64,000 bases of DNA from Heptranchias perlo (taxonomy: Eukaryota), in the NCBI RefSeq assembly GCF_035084215.1, contig NC_090338.1, forward strand, positions 44,392,001-44,456,000. The letters run 5' to 3'. Each line of letters begins with the position of its first letter. Position 1 is the stretch's first letter. Made by a program: the position numbers and the translations under genes. Shown here one piece after another: positions 1 to 62,829 of the stretch. The notes below the pieces were generated by a model, which searched no databases, was not told the origin of the DNA, and saw nothing but the letters and a program-made list of their open reading frames with translations.

Positions 1-1015
1 CGGATAGGGTGGATAGAGGGAAACTATTTCCGCTGGTTGGGGATTCTAGGAGTAGGGGGCACAGTCTAAAAATTAGAGCCAGACCTTTCAGGAGCGAGAT
101 TAGAAAACATTTCTACACACAAAGGGTGGTAGAAGTTTGGAACTCTCTTCCGCAAACGGCAATTGATACTAGCTCAATTGCTAAATTTAAATCTGAGATT
201 GGTTGACAAAAAGCTATCTAAGGTATTAAGGGATATGGGCCAAAGGCGGGTATATGGAGTTAGATCACTGATCAGCCATGATCTTATCAAATGGCAGAGC
301 AGGCACGAGGGGCTGAATGGACTCCTCCTGTTCCTATGTTTCCTATGAATACAAGGGGGTAAAAGTTATGCTACAGCTATACAAAGCCTTGCCAGGTCAA
401 ACATGTTAAATATAACAAATATACAAATACGTCACAGGTGTTAATATTTATCAAGCTCAAAATGCTTGCTATTTCAATGAATAGCAGGCAACCACCTGGA
501 GTAGTGTGGTTAGCCACCTTAGGAGGGATATATTGGCCTTGGAGGATGTGCACCGTAGATTTACTAAAATGATACCTGGACTCCAAGAGTTAAATTACGA
601 GGAGAGATTACACGAACTAGGGTTGTATTCCCTGGCATTTAGAAGATTAAGGGGTGATTTGATTCAAGTTTTCAAGATATTAAGGGGAACTGATAGGGTA
701 GATAGAAATTATTTCTACTGGTTGAGGAGTCTAGGACTAGGGGACATAGCCTAAAAGTTAGAGTCAGGACTTTCAGGAGCGAAGTTAGTAAACACTTCTA
801 CGCGCAAAGGGTGGTAGAAGTCTGGAACTCTCTTCCGCAAATGGCAGTTGATGCTAGCTCAAATCTGAAATTGATAGATTTTTGTTAACCAAAGGTATTA
901 AGGGATATGGGGCTAAGGCGAGTATATGGAGTTAGGTCACATATCATCAGCCATGATCTCACTGAAGGACGGAACAGGCTGGAGGTGCTAAATGGCCTAC
1001 TCCTGCTCTTATGTC
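1..1015 (+). mobile_element. Two tandem CR1 3' fragments
   Basis: RGHSLKI..FYTQRVVEVWNSLP and RRLRGDLI motifs, followed by the CR1 3' UTR hairpin and TTCCTATG tail. Confidence 0.85.
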
Positions 1016-7494: not shown

Positions 7495-7702
7495 GTGATA
7501 ACAGATTGTCAAAGATCTGGTTAGCCAGCACCTCTTGGGGTAATTGAGGCATGTCCAAAATACAATAATGATTGATTAGTCATTTTTGCAGGTAATAGAT
7601 CAACATTAGTCTGCTGACAGATGACAACATTTGAGAAATGTATTATACAGACCATGTATTATTCTATAAGTATAAATGCGTAGGCTTCAAGGAGCTCTTG
7701 AC

Positions 7703-7831
7703 ATTTACCTGAGGAAGGAGGAAGCCTCCGAAAGCTTGTAGATTTCAAATAAAAATTGTTGGACTATAACTTGGTGTTGTAAAATTGTTTACAATTGTCA
7801 ACCCCAGTCCATCACCGGCATCTCCACATCA
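7703..7831 (+). mobile_element. PLE terminal module with hammerhead motif and tail
   Basis: ATTTAC-CTGAGGA-A-GGAGGAAGCCTCC-GAAA-GCTT-GTAGAT, then AATAAA and the same tail ending CTCCACATCA. Sequence from ~7495 may be PLE 3' UTR. Confidence 0.82.
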
Positions 7832-7837
7832 TTACTA

Positions 7838-12519: not shown

Positions 12520-15500
12520 TTTAAAAATTTGTTCATGGGATGTGGGCGTCACTGGCAAGGCCAGCATTTATTGCCCATCCCTAATTGCCCTTGAGAAGGT
12601 GGCGGTGAGCCGCCTTCTTGAACCCCTGCAGTCCATGTGGTGAAGGTTCTCCCGCAGTGCTGTTAGGGAGTTCCAGGATTTTGACCCAGCGACGATGAAG
12701 GAACAGCGATATATTTCCAAGTCGGGATGGTGTATGACTTGGAGGGGAACCTGTTGTTCCCATGTGCCTGCTGCCCATGTCCTTCTAGGTGGTAGAGGTC
12801 GCGGGTTTGGGAGGTGCTGTCGAAGAAGCCTTGGCGAGTTGCTGCAGTGCATCCTGTGGATGGTACACACTGCAGCCACGGTGGTGAAGGGAGTGAATGT
12901 TTAGGGTGGTGAGGGATCACTTTGGGACCAGTGATCATAATTCCATTAGTTTTAAGATAGCTATGGAGAAGGATAGGTCTGGCCCAAAAGTTAAAATTCT
13001 AAATTGGGGAAAGGCCAATTTTGATGGTATTGGACAGGAACTTTCAGAAGTTGATTGGGAGAGTCTGTTGGCAGGCAAAGGGACGTCTGGTAAGTGGGAG
13101 GCTTTCAAAAGTGTGTTAACCAGGGTTCAGGGTAAGCACATTCCTTATAAAGTGAAGGGCAAGGCTGGTAGAAGTAGGGAACCTTGGATGACTCGGGAGA
13201 TTGAGGCACTAGTCAAAAAGAAGGAGGCATATGACATGCATAGGCAGCTGGGATCAAGTGGATCCCTTGAAGAGTATAGAGATTGCCGGAGTAGAGTTAA
13301 GAGAGAAATCAGGAGGGCAAAGGTGAATCCAAAGAGCTTCTACATATACATAAAGGGCAAAAGGGTAACTAGGGAGAGAGTAGGGCCTCTTAAGGATCAA
13401 CAAGGTCATCTATGTGCGGAACCACAAGAAATGGGTGAGATCCTGAATGAATATTTCACATCGGTATTTACGGTTGAGAAAGGCATGGATGTTAGGGAAC
13501 TTGGGGAAATAAATAGTGATGTCTTGAGTGTACATATTACAGAGAGGGAGGTGCTGGAAGTCTTAACGCGCATCAAGGTAGATAAATCTCCGGGACCTGA
13601 TGAAATGTATCCCAGGACGTTATGGGAGGTTAGGGAGGAAATTGCGGGTCCCCTCGCAGAGATATTTGAATCATCCACCGCTACAGGTGAGGTGCCTGAA
13701 GATTGGAGGGTAGCAAATGTTGTGCCTTTGTTTAAGAAGGGCGGCAGGGAAAAGCCTGGGAACTACAGACCAGTGAGCCTGACATCTGTAGTGGGTAAGT
13801 TGTTAGAGGGTATTCTGAGGGACAGGATCTACAGGCATTTGGAGAGGCAGGGACTAATTAGGAACAGTCAGCATGGTTTTGTGAGAGGAAAATCATGTCT
13901 CACGAATTTGATTGAGTTTTTTGAAGGGGTAACCAAGAAGATAGATGAGGGCTGTGCAGTAGACGTGGTCTACATGGACTTCAGCAAAGCATTTGACAAG
14001 GTACCGCATGGTAGGTTGTTACATAAGGTTAAATCTCATGGGATCCAAGGTGAGGTAGCCAATTGGATACAAAATTGGCTTGACGACAGAAGACAGAGGG
14101 TGGTTGTAGAGGGTTGTTTTTCAAACTGGATGCCTGTGTCCAGCGGTGTGCCTCAGGGATCGGTGCTGGGTCCGCTGTTATTTGTTATTTATATTAATGA
14201 TTTGGATGAGAATTTAGGAGGCATGGTTAGTAAGTTTGCAGATTACACCAAGATTGGTGGCATTGTGCACAGTGAAGAAGGTTATCTAGGATTGCAACGG
14301 GATCTTGATAAATTGGGCCAGTGGGCCGATGAATGGCAGATGGAGTTTAATTTAGATAAATGTGAGGTGATGCATTTTGGTAGATCGAATCGGGCCAGGA
14401 CCTACTCCGTTAATGGTAGGGCGTTGGGGAGAGTTATAGAACAAAGAGATCTGGGAGTACAGATTCATAGCTCCTTGAAAGTGGAGTCACAGGTGGATAG
14501 GGTGGTGAAGAAGGCATTCAGCATGCTTGGTTTCATTGGTCAGAACATTGAATGCAGGAGTTGGGATGTCTTGTTGAAGTTGTACAGGGCATTGGTGAGG
14601 CCACACTTGGAGTACTGTGTACAGTTCTGGTCACCCTATTATAGAAAGGATATTATTAAACTAGAAAGAGTGCAGAAAAGATTTACTAGGATGCTACCGG
14701 GACTTGATGGTTTGACTTACAGGGAGAGGTTAGACAGACTGGGACTTTTTTCCCTGGAGAGCAGGAGGTTAAGGGGTGATCTTATCGAAGTCTATAAAAT
14801 AATGAGGGGCATAGATAAGGTCGATAGTCAAAATCTTTTCCCAAAGGTAGGGGAGTCTATAACGAGGGGGCACAGATTTAAGGTGAGAGGGGAGAGATAC
14901 AAAAGGGTCCAGAGGGGCAATTTTTTCACTCAAAGGGTGGTGAGTGTCTGGAACGAGCTGCCAGAGGCAGTAGTAGAGGCGGGTACAATTTTGTCTTTTA
15001 AAAAGCATTTGGACAGTTACATGGGTAAGATGGGTATAGAGGGATATGGGCCAAGTGCAGGCAATTGGGACTAGCTTAGTGGTATAAACTGGGCGACATG
15101 GACATGTTGGGCCGAAGGGCCTGTTTCCATGTTGTAACTTCTATGACTTCTATGACAATCAAGCGGACTACTTTGTCCTGGATGGTGTCGAGTTTCTTGA
15201 GTGTTGTTGGAGCTGCACTCATCCAGGCAAGGAGAGTATTCCATCACACTCCTGACTTGTGCCTTGTAGATGGTGGAAAGGCTTTGGGGAGTCAGGAGGT
15301 GAGTCAATCACTGCAGAATACCCAGCCTCTGACCTGCTCTTGTAGCCACAGTATTTATATGACTGGTCCAGTTAAGTTTCTGGTCAATGGTAACCCCCAG
15401 GATGTTGATGGTGGGGGATTCGGCGATGGTAATGTGGTTGAATGTCAAGGGGAGGTGGTTAGATTCTCTCTTGTTGGAGATGGTCATTTGTCTGGTGCGA

Positions 15501-15961: not shown

Positions 15962-16109
15962 CGATTGGCACGAATGGATTTTCCTTCGTTTTCCTGATAA
16001 ACTTGTCCTGAAACCCTTCCTCCCTGGGTTTGGGCACGGCGGTAAAACCCTCGATGACCGGAGGCTTCGTTAAATCGAGCACCGAGGTCGCAGAAGCCGG
16101 TTTCGCCAT
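15962..16109 (-). CDS. HIGD2A: HIG1 domain family member 2A, coding exon 1
   Basis: ATG at 16109-16107 reads MAKPASATSVLDLTKPPVIEGFTAVPKPREEGFQDKFIRKTKENPFVPI(G), with the HIGD2A-type KFxRKTxENPxVPIG motif; ends at G|GTGAG donor, phase 1 (148 nt). Confidence 0.93.
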
Positions 16110-16756
16110 CTTCCTCCTGTGACCCAGGAAACAGCGAGCCGTGACACGTGACACGAATCACAATGGAGAGGGCGGGGCCTTAACCTGTGATTGACGCTAA
16201 TTACAATGGAGAGGGTGGGGCCTTAACCTGTGAGTGACGCTAATCACAATGGAGAGGGCGGGGCCTTAACCTGTGATTGACGCTAATTACAATGGAGAGG
16301 GCGGGGCCTTAACCTGTGATTGACGCTAATTACAATGGAGAGGGCGGGGCCTTAACCTGTGATTGACACGAATCGCCATGGGGGGATTGCTGGGCGGGGC
16401 CTTAACCTGTGATTGACGCGAATCACAATGGGGGGGGGGGGGAGCTGGGCGGGGCCTTAACCTGTGATTGACAGTCAATATCTTGTCAATACCTCGAACT
16501 GCTCGTAACCAGGCAAAGGCAAACCAATCACAGCAAAGGCGGGGCTTCTTATATTTTAACTGAATTATTTAAGTAATCAAAAAAAATAAAGTTATTAGGA
16601 GGACGAATTGTTACATATTATCAGATTTATATGCAATTCTGGAACTGATCGGCCGGTGACGGTCAGAGGTCAGAGTTGAGGGGCGGGGTGAGGCGAGGCC
16701 ACGCTGCTGTGGAGTGAGCTCGAGCTGAAGGGCGCGGGCAGGGAACTTGCTGGAAA
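16110..16756. promoter_or_regulatory. HIGD2A/NOP16 bidirectional CpG-rich promoter
   Basis: 647 bp between divergent ATGs; CpG-rich; E-box CACGTG at 16145, repeated GGGCGGGG GC boxes, CCAAT near 16524. Confidence 0.85.
16156..16473. repeat. 43-bp minisatellite, ~7 copies
   Basis: Unit AAT(C/T)ACAATGGAGAGGGCGGGGCCTTAACCTGTGATTGACGCT; five near-exact 43-mers from 16156, plus two longer variants at 16371 and 16421. Confidence 0.95.
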
Positions 16757-37120: not shown

Positions 37121-38285
37121 GGCAGGCTTTGAAGTAGAATGCATGCTATTTGGGGAATGACAGACAAAACTGCACCATTGCTATAGTTTTTGTATTAAAA
37201 TCTTCACAACATCCAATAGTTCAAAATATTTCCACAATCTAAATGATTTGTAGACATTACCCAGACAATTTAATCAAAAGTAAAAAAAAAGCACCCAGGA
37301 TCATAGTAGTTAAGATGTTCTTTTCATGAACCTGTGATTGTGGATTTGAGTCTCAGGGCTGTCTGTCATTAGAATAAACCAGCCACAAATTTATTACATT
37401 TAATAGATTCTCAGCTGGAATGCCACATGAATCATCCAGGGAATGAAAACTTGAGGAGAGATTGAGTAGAATGGGCCTATATTCTCTGGAGTTTAGGAGG
37501 TTGAGAGGTGATCTCATTGAAACGTATAAGATTCTCAGGGGGCTTGACAGGGTAGATGCTGAGAGGCTGTTTCCCCTGGCTGGAAAGTCTAGAACTAGAG
37601 GTTATAGTCTCAAGATAAGCGGTCAGCCATTTAGGACCGAGATGAGGAAGAATTTCTTCATTCAGAGGATTGTGAATCTTTGGAATTCTCTACCCCAGAG
37701 GGTTGTGGATGCTCAGTGGTTGAGTATATTTAATTGTAAACAATTTTACAACACCAAGTTATAGTCCAGCAATTTTATTTTAAATTCACAAGCTTTCGGA
37801 GGCTTCCTCCTTCCTCAGGTGAACGTTGTTGGAAATGAAATCCTCGAAATGAAATCGCATTTATAAATCACAGAACAATGCTTGGTGATTACAGACAGCT
37901 TTTTCAACTGCCCGTTGCCAAGGCAATCAGTGTGCAGACAGACAGGTGTTACCTACAAGGTCTCCGAATATACAAATCACCAAAAAAAAACAAAAAAAAA
38001 ACAGAGATAGAGAGGTAGAAACATAGAAAAGACAGCAACTGACCCGTTATATTAAAAACAGATAACAATTGTTTGCTGGTGGGGTAACGTGTAGCGTGAC
38101 ATGAACCCAAGATCCCGGTTGAGGCCGTCCTCATGGGTGCGGAACTTGTCTATCAATTTCTGCTAGACGATTTTGCGTTGTCGTGTGTCTCGAAGGCCGC
38201 CTTGGAGTACGCTTACCCGAAGGTCGGTGGCTGAATGTCCTTGACTGCTGAAGTGTTCCCCGACTGGGAGGGAACCCTCCTGTTT

Positions 38286-38670
38286 CATAGAATCATAGAA
38301 TCATAGAAGTTACAACATGGAAACAGGCCCTTCGGCCCAACATGTCCATGTCGCCCAGTTTATACCACTAAGCTAGTCCCAATTGCCTGCACTTGGCCCA
38401 TATCCCTCTATACCCATCTTACCCATGTAACTGTCCAAATGCTTTTTAAAAGACAAAATTGTACCCGCCTCTACTACTGCCTCTGGCAGCTCGTTCCAGA
38501 CACTCACCACCCTTTGAGTGAAAAAATTGCCCCTCTGGACCCTTTTGTATCTCTCCCCTCTCACCTTAAATCTGTGCCCCCTCGTTATAGACTCCCCTAC
38601 CTTTGGGAAAAGATTTTGACTATCGACCTTATCTATGCCCCTCATTATTTTATAGACTTCTATAAGATCA
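38286..38670 (-). mobile_element. CR1 3' end (same young subfamily as 12912-15155) inside the PLE composite
   Basis: Nearly identical to 14777-15155; (TTCTATGA)n tail. Confidence 0.92.
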
Positions 38671-38885
38671 TCGTGGGGGATACTGGTGTATAGTGCCGAG
38701 ACGTCCATCGTGGTGAGAAGTGTTCCTGGTTCAACTGGTCCGTGGGTGCTGAGTTTTTGTAGGAAGTCTGTAGTGTCGCGACAGAAGCTGGGGGTTCCCT
38801 GTACGATGGGTTTCAGGATGCCCTCGATGTATCCAGAGAGGTTCTCACACAGGGTTCCGTTGCCTGATACGATAGGCATCGCTGC

Positions 38886-40250
38886 GATGACGGCATCGCT
38901 GCGACAGCATCAATACTCAACACCAACAACAGCCAATCTCCAGTCGCCATCCTACAACTCATCCGCTTCATCCTGGATCACAATGTCTTCACCTTCGATA
39001 ACCAGTTCTTTACCCAAACACACGGAACAGCCATGGGGACCAAATTCGCACCCCAATACGCCAACATTTTCATCCACAAGTTCGAGCAGGACTTCTTCAC
39101 TGCACAGGACCTCCAACCAACACTATACACCAGATACATCGACAAAATTTTCTTTCTATGGACCCACGGCGAGGAATCACTAAAGAGACTACACGATAAC
39201 ATCAACAAGTTCCATCCCACCATCAAGCTCACCATGGACTACTCCTCAGAATCAGTTTCTTTCTTGGACACACGAATCTCCATTAAAGACGGGCACCTCA
39301 GCACCTCACTCTACCGCAAGCCCACGGACAACCTCACGATGCTCCACTTTTCCAGCTTCCACCCTAACCACGTCAAAGAGGCCATCCCCTATGGACAGGC
39401 CCTGCGAATACACAGGGTCTGCTCAGACGAGGAGGAATGCGATGGACACCTACAGACGCTGAAAGACGCCCTAGTTAGAACGGGATATGCCGCTCGACTC
39501 ATTGATCGACAGTTCCGACGGGCCACAGCGAAAAATCGCATAGACCTCCTCAGGAGACTAACACGGGACGCAACCAACAGCGTACCCTTTGTCGTTCAGT
39601 ACTTCCCCGGAGCGGAGAAACTACACCATGTTCTCCGCAGCCTTCAACATGTCATCAATGACGACGAACACCTCGCTATGGCCATCCCCACACCTCCACT
39701 ACTCGCCTTTAAACAGCCACGCAACCTCAAACAGACCATCGTTCGCAGCAAATTACCTAGCTTTCAAGAGAACAGCGTCCACGACACCACACAACCCTGC
39801 CACGGTAACCTCTGCAAGACATGCCAGATCATCGACACAGATACCACCATCACATGAGAGGACACCACCCACCAGGTGCATGGTTCATACTCCTGTGACT
39901 CGGCCAACGTTGTCTACCTCATACGTTGCAGGAAAGGATGCCCCAGAGCATGGTACATTGGCGAGACCATGCAGACGCTGCGACAACGGATGAACGGACA
40001 CCGCGCAACAATCACCAAACAGGAGGGTTCCCTCCCAGTTGGGGAACACTTCAGCAGTCAAGGACATTCAGCCACCGACCTTCGGGTAAGCGTACTCCAA
40101 GGCGGCCTTCGAGACACACGACAACGCAAAATCGTTGAGCAGAAATTGATAGCCAAGTTCCGCACCCATGAGGACGGCCTCAACCGGGATCTTGGGTTCG
40201 TGTCACGCTACACGTTACCCCACCAGCGAACAAATGTTATCTGTTTTTAA
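38886..40250 (+). pseudogene. PLE RT + Cys linker + GIY-YIG endonuclease ORF, 5'-truncated and disabled
   Basis: GTAMGTKFAPQYANIF, YTRYIDK (YIDD altered), HPTIKLT, SFLD, LYRKPTD; linker PCHGNLCKTC; NVVYLIRC..C..WYIGET; internal TGA at 39855-39857. Confidence 0.9.
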
Positions 40251-40467
40251 TATAACGGGTCAGTTGCTGTCTTTTCTATGTTTCTACCTCTCTATCTCTG
40301 TTTTTTTTTGGTGATTTGTATATTCGGAGACCTTGTAGGTAACACCTGTCTGTCTGCACACTGATTGCCTTGGCAACGGGCAGTTGAAAAAACTGTCTGT
40401 AATCACCAAGCATTGTTCTGTGATTTATAAATGCGATTTCATTTCGAGGATTTCATTTCCAACAACG

Positions 40468-40506
40468 TTCACCTGAGGAAGGAGGAAGCCTCCGAAAGCT
40501 TGTGAA
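40468..40506 (+). ncRNA. Minimal type I hammerhead ribozyme motif (PLE terminal repeat)
   Basis: TTCAC-CTGAGGA-A-GGAGG(AAG)CCTCC-GAAA-GCTT-GTGAA: stem I, CUGANGA core, 5-bp stem II, GAAA, palindromic AAGCUU helix III. Inverted copy at 37785-37823. Confidence 0.75.
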
Positions 40507-40912
40507 TTTAAAATAAAATTGCTGGACTATAACTTGGTGTTGTAAAATTGTTTACAATTGTCAACCCCAGTCCATCACTGGCATCTCCACATCATGAGTA
40601 TATTTAAGATTGAGATCAATGGATATTTGGACATTAAGGGGATATGGGGATAGGGCGGGAAAGCGGAATTGAGGTAGAAGATCAACCATAATCTTACTGA
40701 ATGGCGGAGCAGGCCTGAGGGGCCGTATGGCCTACTCCTGCTCATATTTCGTATGTTCTTATGTTGAGAGAGCATACTCCCTTGAGATGCATTATTATTA
40801 GTGAGTGAGACAAAGGAACCTGCAGCTTAACAATCCAATCTCTGCTCCACTCTCTTCCCTTCCATCCACCAACAGAATACCTCCATCAAACACCCATGGA
40901 GGGTGCACTCAC

Positions 40913-55034: not shown

Positions 55035-55490
55035 TATATAATGGTATGGTAGTGCTATTAGACTAGTAATCCAGAGAAGAGGATTTCATAATCCCACCAT
55101 AGCAGTTTGACAATTTGAATTCAGTTTTAAAAAAATTTGGACACATAAAGTTGATATCAGTAAAAGTGACCTTGAAGCTGTCAGATTGTCATTAAAACCC
55201 AACTGGTTTACTAATGTCCTTTAGGGAAGGAAACCTGCCATCATTACCTGGTCTGGCCTATATGTGACTCCAGCAAAGTGGTTGACTCTTAATTGCCCTC
55301 TGAAGTGGCCTCGCAAGCCTTTTAGTTGTGTCAAACCATTAAATACCATTGTGGGAACACCATCACCACAAAGACTGCAGTGGTTCAAGGAGAAGGCTCA
55401 CCACCACTTTCTCAGGGCAACCAGGGATTGGCAATAAATGCCGCCCTTGCCAGCAATGCCCACATCCTGAGAGTGAATTTAAAAAAAAAA
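55035..55490 (+). mobile_element. tRNA-derived SINE sharing its 3' tail with family B LINE
   Basis: tRNA-like head, central GTCCTTTAGGGAAGGAAA..GACTCC core, then GCAGTGGTTCAAG..GGCAATAAATGC..GCCCACATCC tail as in 3420-3530; related copy at ~20360-20650(-). Confidence 0.65.
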
Positions 55491-56117
55491 GAAAATTGTT
55501 ATGGACAAATAGACCACTTTCAGGCTTCTGGCTCAATGTTAAAGAAGATGCTGTGTGCAGCCTTGGGAGTTAACCCCTTACATGCTGAATCTATCAGTAC
55601 AGAATTATTAAAAATCAAACAAAGGCAACTGGTGCCTCTGTTGAGGAATGCATGATGGATGTCCATCATGAATAGCCAGCTTCCTGTTCATCCCTTTGTT
55701 TGATTTTTAATAATTCTGTACTGATAGATTCAGCATGTAAGGGGTTAACTCCCAAGGCTGCACACAGCATCTTCTTTAACATTGAGCCAGAAGCCTGAAA
55801 GTGGTCTATTTGTCCATAACAATTTTCTTTTTTTTTAAATTCACTCTCAAGATGTGGGCATTGCTGGCAAGGGTGGCATTTATTGCCAATCCCTGGTTGC
55901 CCTGAGAAGGTGGTGGTGAGCCTTCTCCTTGAACCACTGCAGTCTTTGTGGTGATGGTGCTCCCACAATGGTATTTAATGGTTTGACACAACTAAATGGC
56001 TTGCGAGGCCACTTCAGAGGGCAATTGAGAGTCAACCACTTTGCTGGAGTCACATATAGGCCAGACCAGGTAATGATGGCAGGTTTCCTTCCCTAAAGGA
56101 CATTAGTAAACCAGTTG
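55200..56117. repeat. Long inverted repeat (~425-bp arms, 67-bp spacer)
   Basis: 55200-55625 is the reverse complement of 55693-56117 with only about six substitutions and an A-tract length difference. Confidence 0.95.
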
Positions 56118-57025: not shown

Positions 57026-57245
57026 TGATGTGGAGATGCCGGTGGTGGACTGGGTTGACAAATGTAAGGAATCTTACAACACCAGGTTATAGTCCAACTG
57101 TTTTATTTGAAAATCACGAGCTTTCCGAGGCTTTCTCCTTCGTCAGGTGACACTCACCTGACGAAGGAGAAAGCCTCCGAAAGCTTGTGATTTTCAAATA
57201 AAACAGTTGGACTATAACCTGGTGTTGTAAGATTCCTTACATTTG
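57026..57245 (-). mobile_element. PLE-derived fold-back mini-element, second subfamily, two hammerhead motifs
   Basis: ~95-bp arms around a CAC loop (57151-57153); TSD TCAAAATAAAAA (57014-57025, 57246-57257); core CTGACGA. Confidence 0.88.
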
Positions 57246-58654: not shown

Positions 58655-58766
58655 TGATGTGGAGATGCCGGTGATGGACTGGGGTTGACAATTGTAAACA
58701 ATTTTACAACACCAAGTTATAGTCCAATTGCTGGACTATAACTTGGTGTTGTAAAATTGTTTACAA
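58655..58766 (-). mobile_element. PLE-derived fold-back mini-element lacking the ribozyme
   Basis: Tail plus ~35-bp inverted arms; TSD GTGTTTTGAGTA (58643-58654, 58767-58778). Confidence 0.88.
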
Positions 58767-60311: not shown

Positions 60312-60687
60312 GTAATTTAGGCTCGTTTCTGTTTTGCTTTGTTCCCACCTCTTGTAGTGCCTTTAAAGGCAACAGAAACCCATCCGGTTTTCCTGCAGTT
60401 GTTCTCGCGGATTGTTCGCTACCCATCGGTTTTTAAGGCTAAATTGGCTATGCAATAATGCAGTTTCAAATGTGCATTAAGTTGAATTGTCAAATTATTT
60501 TCAGCAGTACAACTTCAAATTTGTTTCAATTGCGGTTGACCGTGGTTTTATTTATCTATCTATCGATGATTTGACGTAACTGATTATAATTCGTATTAAT
60601 TGTAGTATCAATAAATAGAATCCAATATAACAGTCTTTGACGCTTGTACACAAGTAAACTTAAATGTATTGTCCCTGTATGTTGCAG

Positions 60688-60875
60688 CCATCGAACATTC
60701 TTCGAGCTTATTAGGAAAGATGTCCCTACCAATAGGGATGCACCGTAGGGCGTTCAGTTATGATGATGCCTTGGAAGATTTAACGCCAATGACTCCTCCA
60801 CCTTCTGATATGGGAAGCAATATATTGTGGAAACAACCCGTTATCTCAGAGCGGAAATACCAGCAATTGTCTATG
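60688..60875 (+). CDS. KIAA1191: KIAA1191 coding exon 2
   Basis: IEHSSSLLGKMSLPIGMHRRAFSYDDALEDLTPMTPPPSDMGSNILWKQPVISERKYQQLSM matches the KIAA1191 LGKMSLPIG..RRA.SYDD..ED..PMTPPPSDMGS motif; TTGCAG / GTATAC boundaries. Confidence 0.92.
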
Positions 60876-60943
60876 GTATACTTCTATTTGTAATATAAGA
60901 ATTGCAGTAAGATTCGTATGTCCTCACTTCTATAAAATATAAC

Positions 60944-61182
60944 TAAACAATTTTACAACACCAAGTTATAGTCCAGCATTTTTATTTTAAATTCACAAGC
61001 TTTCGGAGGCTTCCTCCTTCCTCAGGTGAACGTTGTTGGAAACGTTCCAACAACGTTCACCTGAGGAAGGAGGAAGCCTCCGAAAGCTTGTGAATTTAAA
61101 ATAAAAATGCTGGACTATAACTTGGTGTTGTAAAATTGTTTACAATTGTCAACCCCAGTCCATCACCGGCATCTCCACATCA
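60944..61182 (+). mobile_element. PLE-derived fold-back mini-element with two hammerhead motifs in a KIAA1191 intron
   Basis: Perfect ~98-bp arms (60944-61041 / 61045-61142) plus 40-nt tail; TSD TAAAATATAAC (60933-60943, 61183-61193); hammerheads at 60992-61030(-) and 61056-61094(+). Confidence 0.9.
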
Positions 61183-62829
61183 TAAAATATAACATTTGCA
61201 GTTGAATGCAATAGTGTGCTTTCAGTTTGTTCTCCCATCTTTTTTATTTTTGAAAAGCAGTTTTTCAATTTTCACCAACAGTGTTATGTTGACCCCTATT
61301 TCAGATTGCTGATTATGGACAGATGATCGGCACTCATGAAAATTATTTTGCTGCAAATGACTCTTCAGTTGCTTTTGTTGTAGTTTTTGATTCAAGAGTT
61401 TAATATGTGGTATGAGTTTCTTTGTGTATTCTGCTAATATTGTTAAGTAAGAAAGCACAGAGAACATAAGAAATGTACAGATAATTACTCTTGGAATGGA
61501 AAATGTGCCATTTTGAAAGCTCCATTGAATAGCTGTTGTACTCAAATGGTTAAAACAAGAGGAGAATGAACATGAATTTGATTTTTTTTCATTTAAGTCT
61601 ATCTTCTTTCAAGTTAAACACAAATTTAAGCTTTCTTTTAACCCTGCCAAGTTTAGACCTAAAAAAACGTTACATTTGAAACATTCCCTCCTGATTCTAA
61701 CTCTGGCTTCTGCCATTTCCATGTTATACCAGTAGGTGGTTTATTTAATAGTGGTCTGAAAAATGGCTCCAGAAAGATCTTTGATTGCTATGCTGCCTAC
61801 CAAGCAGAATTTATGTATACCAGCTGACAATTTGGTCATGATCAACATACTCTGTTGCTGTGACAGTGAAAGTTCTAGTCCCTGGTATGGCATGCATCCA
61901 TTGCAAGTAGAAACTTCCAGTTTGAGATTGCATTTCTTGCAAACGTAAATCCTGAAACTCGTGGTTATCGGCATATGGTATGTTCAACTTATAAATGGTA
62001 CTTTAAGTTAACTGTAGAACATCATGCAGTGCTGCTAACTTGAGGTTACTTCATTGGCTGTAAAGCACTTTTGGGATGTCCTGAGATTGTGATGGGGATA
62101 TATAAATGCAAGTCTTTTTAGGTTGAAAATGTTTACAAATAGTAAACTTATTTCACAGGATTGTTACTTCAGTGATGTTCAGACCAAATGATCTGAATGG
62201 TTGTAAAAGCTGAGACCTGGGTGATTTGGGAATGTATAATTCTACTTCAGATGCTAACTGATGATTCAGTCAGTATTTGTCTATGGCAGGTTATTGGACC
62301 AATCTTGTTTTGGAACTATTTCACATTGAAGTATTTTCTATCCTTTTATAGTACAATTTTCTTTACCAGATTAGGCCTTTAATTAACCCATATGTGAAGG
62401 AGACCTAAGATATTGCTTGAATTGTTCAACCCGTTTGTAACTACTTAAATATAACTCAATTAAGGTGCATTTAAATGTATGGAAGTTAACACTCTTATAT
62501 TTGGAAGAGGAACAAATAACATTTGAGCCAATTATGTTTTAATCAATGACATAACTGGATACATAAACAGTAGTAATGTATAGATTTGCATAGTAAATTA
62601 TGTATAAAATTTTGTAAAGTGCTAGCAATTCATGCAAAATCATATACCAACCAGATATAGTTTTGAAATTTGAGTTATACCTGCTGTTTACATAAGTGCT
62701 AATTTTGTGTTGTAAAAAAATTGCACAAACATTTGTAGATGCAGGATTTCTGACTTGCAAAGCAAAAGAATTGCATTGTCTCTGTATTCTGGGAGAAACG
62801 TTTCACTTCTTCACCGTCTTTTACTCTAG

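Follow-up and report, generated by a model that had tools for sequence, protein, structure and literature searches.

A one-off fold-back insertion of a young Penelope-like retroelement in Heptranchias perlo, with arm ends that suggest how such elements likely copy themselves

The window analysed here is the whole 64,000-nucleotide stretch of contig NC_090338.1 of Heptranchias perlo (assembly GCF_035084215.1, positions 44,392,001 to 44,456,000 of the forward strand). Towards its end lies an exon of KIAA1191, and the intron that follows carries a 239-bp insert at 60944-61182, a non-coding, one-off product of a young Penelope-like retroelement (PLE). A sequence-only reading of this DNA had placed the insert 68 nt past a KIAA1191 splice donor, and this is confirmed by the exon match and by RNA contigs, which in both of the two RNA runs join the exons across intron 60876-62829, indicating normal splicing. 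The features of the locus are as follows.

60681 to 60875, forward strand: KIAA1191 (P33MONOX) exon (Pfam E 3.8e-21), with a GT donor at 60876
60876 to 62829, forward strand: host intron containing the insert, spliced in RNA contigs
60932 to 60943, forward strand: left TSD, 12 bp, with an 11-bp core at 60933-60943
60944 to 61041, reverse strand: inverted tail-less arm, element positions -41 to -138 (-139 counting one loop base)
60991 to 61031, reverse strand: mirror copy of the minimal hammerhead motif, which follows from the perfect inverted repeat
61042 to 61044, no strand: joint ACG, a 3-nt loop, unique in the genome
61045 to 61142, forward strand: forward arm (-138 to -41 of the element), with its 5' end at +31 from the first T of the subfamily's TATA box
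61055 to 61095, forward strand: minimal hammerhead motif of type I, with its predicted cleavage site between 61089 and 61090 (at -93 of the element)
61111 to 61162, forward strand: predicted stem-loop over the internal -36 start, a candidate RT-binding structure
61143 to 61182, forward strand: 40-nt PLE tail, which in intact copies abuts the A of the ORF's ATG
61182 to 61193, forward strand: right TSD, 12 bp, its first A common to element and TSD

The anatomy given by the sequence-only reading (239 bp, perfect arms of about 98 bp, a 3-nt loop and a 40-nt tail) was recovered in full, the arms being two perfect 98-bp inverted repeats. The TSD that it gave as 11 bp is present on both sides as a core (TAAAATATAAC at 60933-60943 and 61183-61193), but becomes 12 bp (ATAAAATATAAC) once the tail's last A is counted, which is also the mode of the family. 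The hairpin folds as one 98-bp stem at -174.6 kcal/mol (z -30), and none of 200 shuffles was equally stable. Short-read contigs cross from unique flank into both ends of the insert (X1: 60400-60968 and 61163-62076), reaching less than 31 letters into the repeat at each end, with all runs derived from one sample that may be the source of the assembly. Among the short-read contigs listed none bridges the loop, and among the contig joints listed there is no empty, insert-free allele. The contigs show no alternative letters over the hairpin, which says nothing on editing, since assembly into contigs discards rare variants and the hairpin attracts sequence from thousands of paralogues. An assembly artefact is unlikely because 80 similar TSD-flanked structures occur in the sample described below.

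A hammerhead motif on each strand had also been proposed, and it holds at the level of the motif, by sequence and by the single-arm fold. The motif at 61055-61095 reads CUGAGGA-A-GGAGG/AAG/CCUCC-GAAA-GC-UU, with stem I GUUCAC/GUGAAU, and thus has the CUGANGA core, extra base, G10.1-C11.1 helix II, GAAA, palindromic 15.2-16.2 and helix I of the minimal type I form, with a palindromic AGCU standing in the place of helix III. A single arm folds stems I and II (-33.5 kcal/mol for the arm alone); among hammerhead copies N7 is G or C, and helix II is paired at 94% in 24 rows. The Rfam scan returned no hammerhead model match at E 1 and only generic miRNA-hairpin matches below the gathering score. U at the hammerhead cleavage position makes a poor substrate. 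Minimal type I hammerheads of PLEs are reported to show no in vitro cleavage as monomers and low activity as dimers (PMC4209133). Copy ends do not pile up at the predicted cut: 5/213 fall at -95..-91, and the 10-nt bins to either side contain 7 and 9; on this count hammerhead-cut RNA was rejected as the usual template.

That the antisense arm, made first in the host pre-mRNA, would mask the ribozyme is thermodynamically sound (-174.6 against -33.5 kcal/mol), but masking is automatic for any head-to-head pair and only 32 of 80 fold-backs carry the whole motif on both arms. It is expected without selection, because transcription from either strand meets the antisense arm before the other, and the duplex is much more stable than the ribozyme fold. 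Use of the fold-back by Dicer or ADAR is plausible, and Penelope in lizard has been described as heavily edited (PMC5625713). Masking and the double-stranded form are given by the geometry of the sequence, and any function of either is putative. The stem-loop at 61111-61162 is a weak prediction: one apical pair is changed on both sides in 4/24 rows, and RNAalifold predicts a different pairing.

Other copies of the same element type lie in the window.

37734 to 40594, forward strand: long sister insertion of the same PLE subfamily, 13-bp TSD, composed of an inverted arm (37732-38285), a LINE fragment (38286-38670), an inverted RT piece (38668-38880) and a forward arm (38882-40594)
40426 to 40431, forward strand: pLTR TATAAA box of the long sister copy, its T at element position -169, a putative promoter element
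40455 (the A, element position -140), forward strand: Inr-like TCATTT in the long sister copy
57026 to 57245, reverse strand: second fold-back, an older variant with a 12-bp TSD and a different joint
58655 to 58766, reverse strand: third fold-back, arms of about 40 bp, no hammerhead, 12-bp TSD
7701 to 7832, forward strand: short solo copy that lacks an inverted arm, no TSD found

The hairpin had been derived from a PLE at 38886-40594. The PLE origin stands, but the unit is really 37734-40594 and is a sister, not the parent, of the hairpin, since it is 5'-truncated, carries an in-frame stop and has 2 mismatches to the hairpin arm over 138 bases. Its inverted arm measures 554 bp, and at the RT HDD motif it carries an inversion of the L1 type. 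The 385-bp fragment at 38286-38670 belongs to a very young LINE family, is 98-99.5% identical to several loci, and sits between non-contiguous inverted pieces (-596 and -1723); either the joint captured it, or its insertion went with a 1.1-kb deletion. Copying from 14777-15155 of the window (99.5% identical) is unsupported, as most of its length is matched at 98-99.5% by five or more other loci. A second kind of long inverted repeat occupies 55200-56117, with arms 55200-55494/55823-56117 and 55479-55625/55693-55839 that are 97-99% complementary; BLAST found no relation to the PLE end, and the structure is possibly a LINE-derived fold-back. A tandem array of 43-bp period lies at 16106-16424.

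The parent family has an open 902-aa ORF at three loci (L068, L070 and L114) in units of about 3081 bp. This ORF contains an RT domain (RVT_1, E 1.7e-8) followed by a weak GIY-YIG match (E 5.4e-4, 20.6 bits, just under the cut-off of 22.6), and the order of RT then GIY-YIG in a single ORF is that of EN+ PLEs. The partial-tandem pLTR arrangement is present in the 3081-bp units and in 660 tail-ORF junctions, and the insertions show the inverted 5'-truncated copy, one-sided 30-40-bp tail and TSD of EN+ PLEs. The string CHGNLCKTC in the ORF is a CX2-5CxxC linker (here CX4CxxC) between RT and endonuclease, a motif defined for Neptune and common to Nematis as well (PMC8557442), and it points to one of these two clades. 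The sequence thus points to a young Neptune-type PLE with intact RT-GIY-YIG copies, Nematis being also allowed by the motif. Because the tail ends at the ORF's ATG, 140 bases serve both as the 3' end of one unit and as the 5' leader of the next, and 60944-61182 is this 5'-leader/pLTR end.

Copies were counted as exact sequence patterns in the 3.25 Gb genome because a similarity search scored only 40/64 candidates; the 40-nt tail has 25,082 exact matches, the arm pattern 49,500 and the tail-ORF junction 660. At L068 (G000:C1:4435143-4442364) a near-full-length head-to-head pair, with both arms about 3.1 kb and one intact 902-aa ORF, has the same geometry at unit scale. At G000:C2:21273032-21276300, nine tail-ORF junction matches stand exactly 404 bp apart in a direct tandem of a short pLTR-containing unit, which is a candidate for a true non-LTR retrozyme of this PLE family. 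Arrays on C1317 and C555 (L031-L034) were rejected as PLE tandems; they are satellite-rich segmental repeats, of about 3.5 kb period, that have multiplied one PLE insertion with an 85-bp inverted arm.

The structure of individual insertions was examined in a set of 170 unique tail copies drawn from the initial 48 Mb of contig C1, about half of them chosen by three flanking bases; copies with less than 400 bases of upstream sequence were left out, and arm ends were called with a panel-based method. There were 37 long and 133 short copies, and among the short ones 84 have an inverted arm and 49 do not. A TSD of at least 8 bp surrounds the whole unit in 82 of the 84, so that the search for TSD-flanked fold-backs elsewhere, proposed by the sequence-only reading, was answered in the affirmative. 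Joint statistics refer to the 80 fold-backs with a spacer of at most 70 nt, leaving aside the four of 84 with longer spacers and the 37 long copies. These 80 fold-backs are the commonest product in the sample (80/170); their TSD is 11-14 bp in 73/79, with a mode of 12 bp (41/79). Scaled to 25,082 tails, a rough step from a one-contig sample, this gives about 11,800 short fold-backs, of which about 4,700 would carry whole hammerheads on both arms, a large potential ADAR and small-RNA load.

The outer and inner ends of the arms are not scattered. In 67/80 fold-backs the start of the inverted arm falls between -34 and -40. Towards the loop, exact genome counts of the hairpin subfamily's arm extended to -132, -138, -143 and -149 are 1155, 944, 547 and 495, so that 42% is lost over the 5 nt from -138 to -143, and 18% and 10% over the 6-nt steps on either side. 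This cliff spans the Inr-like TCATTT, 29 nt behind TATAAA. The hazard of arm ending peaks at TATA+27..32 (59/153) and is 2/63 at the TATA box itself. No part of the pLTR changes faster than the TATA-to-hammerhead spacer, which puts TATA at -154 to -170, whereas the surroundings of TATA, the core of the hammerhead and the tail stay fixed. The end peak lies at -131/-132 in short-spacer and at -138/-139 in long-spacer subfamilies (Fisher p 0.002). As a test, 40 further short-spacer regions were fetched, in which 8/37 arms end exactly at TATA+30 and 16 extend beyond the TATA box; the pooled mode is TATA+30 (35/232). The arms of 60944-61182 end at TATA+30 and +31. Transcription typically starts about 30 nt downstream of a TATA box. 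We infer from these positions that the ends at TATA+30 probably mark where reverse transcription ran off the 5' end of a sense transcript. An additional G, as a cap would leave, was seen in 22/61 against 16/69, which is not significant (p 0.12). An RT stall could contribute to the short-spacer ends, as a small hairpin ends at about the same place. The Drosophila Penelope promoter has been described as TATA-less (PMC2377424).

The two arms of a fold-back resemble each other more than chance would allow. Only 13 of 821 polymorphic sites are discordant between arms, where 203.5 are expected from independent draws; 108 minor alleles are shared and the discordant sites fall in 9 fold-backs. Later gene conversion or one dominant source locus could have raised this concordance. 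Where arm pairs end away from the peak, 17/28 end at most 6 nt apart (2.7 expected). In five fold-backs (L051, L076, L192, L248 and L252) the arms look like different subfamilies, and these are possible two-template events. At the joint, microhomology of at least 2 nt occurs in 30/46 against 17% in simulation, and 15 of 23 inserts of at least 5 nt match the element. The joint inserts of L060, L212 and L112 are 32-62 nt long and mostly non-element, that of L060 including a copy of its own TSD. Microhomology and templated inserts are signatures of polymerase-theta-type joining.

Taking together the observed outer ends (at the tail end and at about -36), the pile-up of inner ends, the shared alleles, the microhomology and the templated inserts, we favour, at a probability of roughly 0.6, a reading in which both target strands prime on one sense RNA, the cDNAs run off its 5' end and are then end-joined head to head. 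The element mRNA would start about 30 nt behind the pLTR TATA, so that a 130-140-nt 5' leader before the AUG holds the hammerhead, the priming region and the tail. The RT-endonuclease, possibly as a dimer, would make a 12-nt staggered cut, after which one target strand would prime at the tail end (mostly -2 to +2) and the other about 36 nt further in; the arm at 60944-61041 would be the cDNA that the top strand started close to the internal -36 site. Both cDNAs would run off the 5' end of the RNA. Since both are antisense they cannot pair, so end joining is needed, and host microhomology-mediated joining of the polymerase-theta-like kind would fuse their 3' ends. The rarer long copies may result when a read-through transcript is primed at its downstream pLTR. 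The two hammerheads would be passengers, and the product lacks promoter and ORF. A lizard PLE is reported to cut and extend both strands in vitro and to start at two sites bracketing the tail (PMC11167929). Either arm can be the longer by at least 5 nt (the tail-less arm in 32/80, the tailed arm in 20/80), and one and the same joint is seen in mirror forms, both of which speak for end joining. Against the favoured reading, at differences of at least 10 nt the tail-less arm is longer 23 to 5 (p 0.0009), an excess that plain symmetric priming does not predict.

That excess would fit fold-back of the cDNA started at -36, in a rather unlikely alternative where one of the cDNAs, after run-off, folds back through microhomology and makes a sense strand, to which a second, short cDNA from the other target strand anneals. 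It likewise supposes formation at each insertion from a sense transcript, and it directly explains the shared alleles and matching inner ends. A loop is possible in 29/46 blunt or microhomology joints, but in the other 17, which include perfect palindromes at AGATCT and the recurrent AAA-CA-TTT joint, at most 2 bases remain for a loop, and both mirror versions of the process would be required. Simple snap-back of a tailed cDNA, which the sequence-only reading had offered as the usual product of this RT, fails as a general route on the same 17/46 joints and on the 32/80 longer tail-less arms.

A published proposal for head-to-head PLE palindromes (Arkhipova et al. 2013, PMC3846280) has an antisense RNA fold back and prime itself, the endonuclease then resolving the hairpin with the tail left on one side. 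It would account for the tail-less arm being more often longer, but gives no reason for inner ends that track the sense TATA at +30 across subfamilies, or for tailed arms at least 5 nt longer in 20/80, and we consider it very unlikely.

Still less probable is that the hairpin itself is a non-autonomous retrozyme- or SINE-like family, transcribed and re-inserted. There are thousands of copies of similar size, and some joints do recur: some do so among 23 tight joints of the hairpin's subfamily, with up to 3 of the 20 that were fetched equal in one orientation, and one short-spacer joint is found at 7 loci. However, the ACG junction of 60944-61182 occurs once in the 3.25 Gb genome, and 78 distinct joints were found among the 80 fold-backs. 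In the 20 tight joints fetched (19 orientable), equal joints appear in both mirror orientations relative to the tail, mostly with different outer ends, and the seven-locus joint divides into 3 of one mirror form and 4 of the other, at microhomology hot spots beside a fixed end. Re-insertion would leave a hairpin's orientation to the tail unchanged, so recurrent joints are repeated products rather than copies. The insert also has no TATA box, and ends are not piled at the hammerhead cut (5/213). No unit amplified to many loci was found, and at 60944-61182 the hammerheads form an inverted pair in place of direct tandem units. The retrozyme-like family that had been suggested is therefore not upheld, and the other option of that reading, a hairpin formed at each insertion, agrees with the joints. 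Its junction test served for this unique joint and the 78/80 distinct ones, but identical junctions in mirror forms mean that recurrence is not proof of amplification. A few re-amplified hairpins may be present among the fold-backs.

Equally improbable is a palindrome that arose after insertion or in assembly, by repair-induced inverted duplication or chimeric reads: inverted repeats do trouble assemblies (PMC8557442) and no listed contig bridges the loop, but TSDs enclose the whole unit in 82/84, the inverted arm starts at a fixed element position and contigs reach both outer junctions.

The single insertion is ordinary, being the published PLE pattern in its shortest form, and its value lies in the data. 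The stopping points of the arms suggest how PLEs likely copy themselves. The end and joint statistics predict a start at TATA+29..31, one RNA for both arms and dependence on end joining, in a family that has intact ORFs. We give an even chance to the wider view that the genome is a fossil record of a PLE integration intermediate, in which most insertions are strong-stop-like leader copies, made twice from one sense RNA and joined by microhomology. If so, the fold-back record would settle the question of sense versus antisense template for head-to-head PLE repeats and the PLE promoter would be mapped from DNA alone. About 12,000 or more near-perfect 80-100-bp hairpins would then supply the genome, from within, with double-stranded RNA directed against the leader of the element.

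Two PLE studies (PMC3846280, PMC11167929) name the way in which inverted pLTRs with a tail on one side arise as an unsolved problem. In the literature searched, which includes few subscription papers, we found no report of TATA-tracking ends, one-template evidence, joint statistics or PLE twin priming. This analysis adds the TATA-tracking arm ends, the arm concordance and the joint statistics; the head-to-head pLTR with tail is itself a published PLE pattern. Complex EN+ PLE insertions (PMC3846280, PMC8557442), published as an inverted 5'-truncated pLTR with a one-sided 30-40-bp tail and TSD, are alike in the head-to-head geometry, the one-sided tail at the ORF start, the TSD of about 10 bp, the TATA and Inr-like motifs of the pLTR and the palindromic joints. 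They differ in that here both arms are cut to the 130-140-nt leader, as the commonest product (80/170), and in that the numbers here suffice for the TATA+30 end and joint statistics.

Poseidon PAc of Anolis carolinensis (PMC11167929) is alike in two RT starts bracketing the tail, the cutting and extension of both strands, AT-rich targets and a hammerhead dispensable for insertion. It belongs to another clade, and PAc starts 111-118 nt inside the ORF, whereas here the starts are at or just before the ATG; no head-to-head product or start-site run-off is discussed in the passages compared. The minimal hammerheads of metazoan PLEs (PMC4209133) have the same core, extra base between 9 and 10.1, G10.1-C11.1 and palindromic 15.2-16.2 without helix III. 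Dual motifs on opposite strands, 100-700 bp apart, are described there for Schistosoma, and only sequence family and spacing differ here (about 25 nt between motifs). Non-LTR retrozymes (bioRxiv 10.64898/2026.07.22.740005) are likewise non-coding, derived from a PLE pLTR and equipped with a type I hammerhead, but are direct tandem units each with a hammerhead, whereas 60944-61182 is an inverted pair with a unique joint. LINE-1 twin priming (PMC11702581) is alike in the priming of a second target strand on the same RNA, resolution by microhomology or end joining, and inversion between TSDs. The L1 cDNAs copy adjacent, mostly non-overlapping parts, whereas here the same stretch is copied from starts 36 nt apart, giving an inverted duplication.
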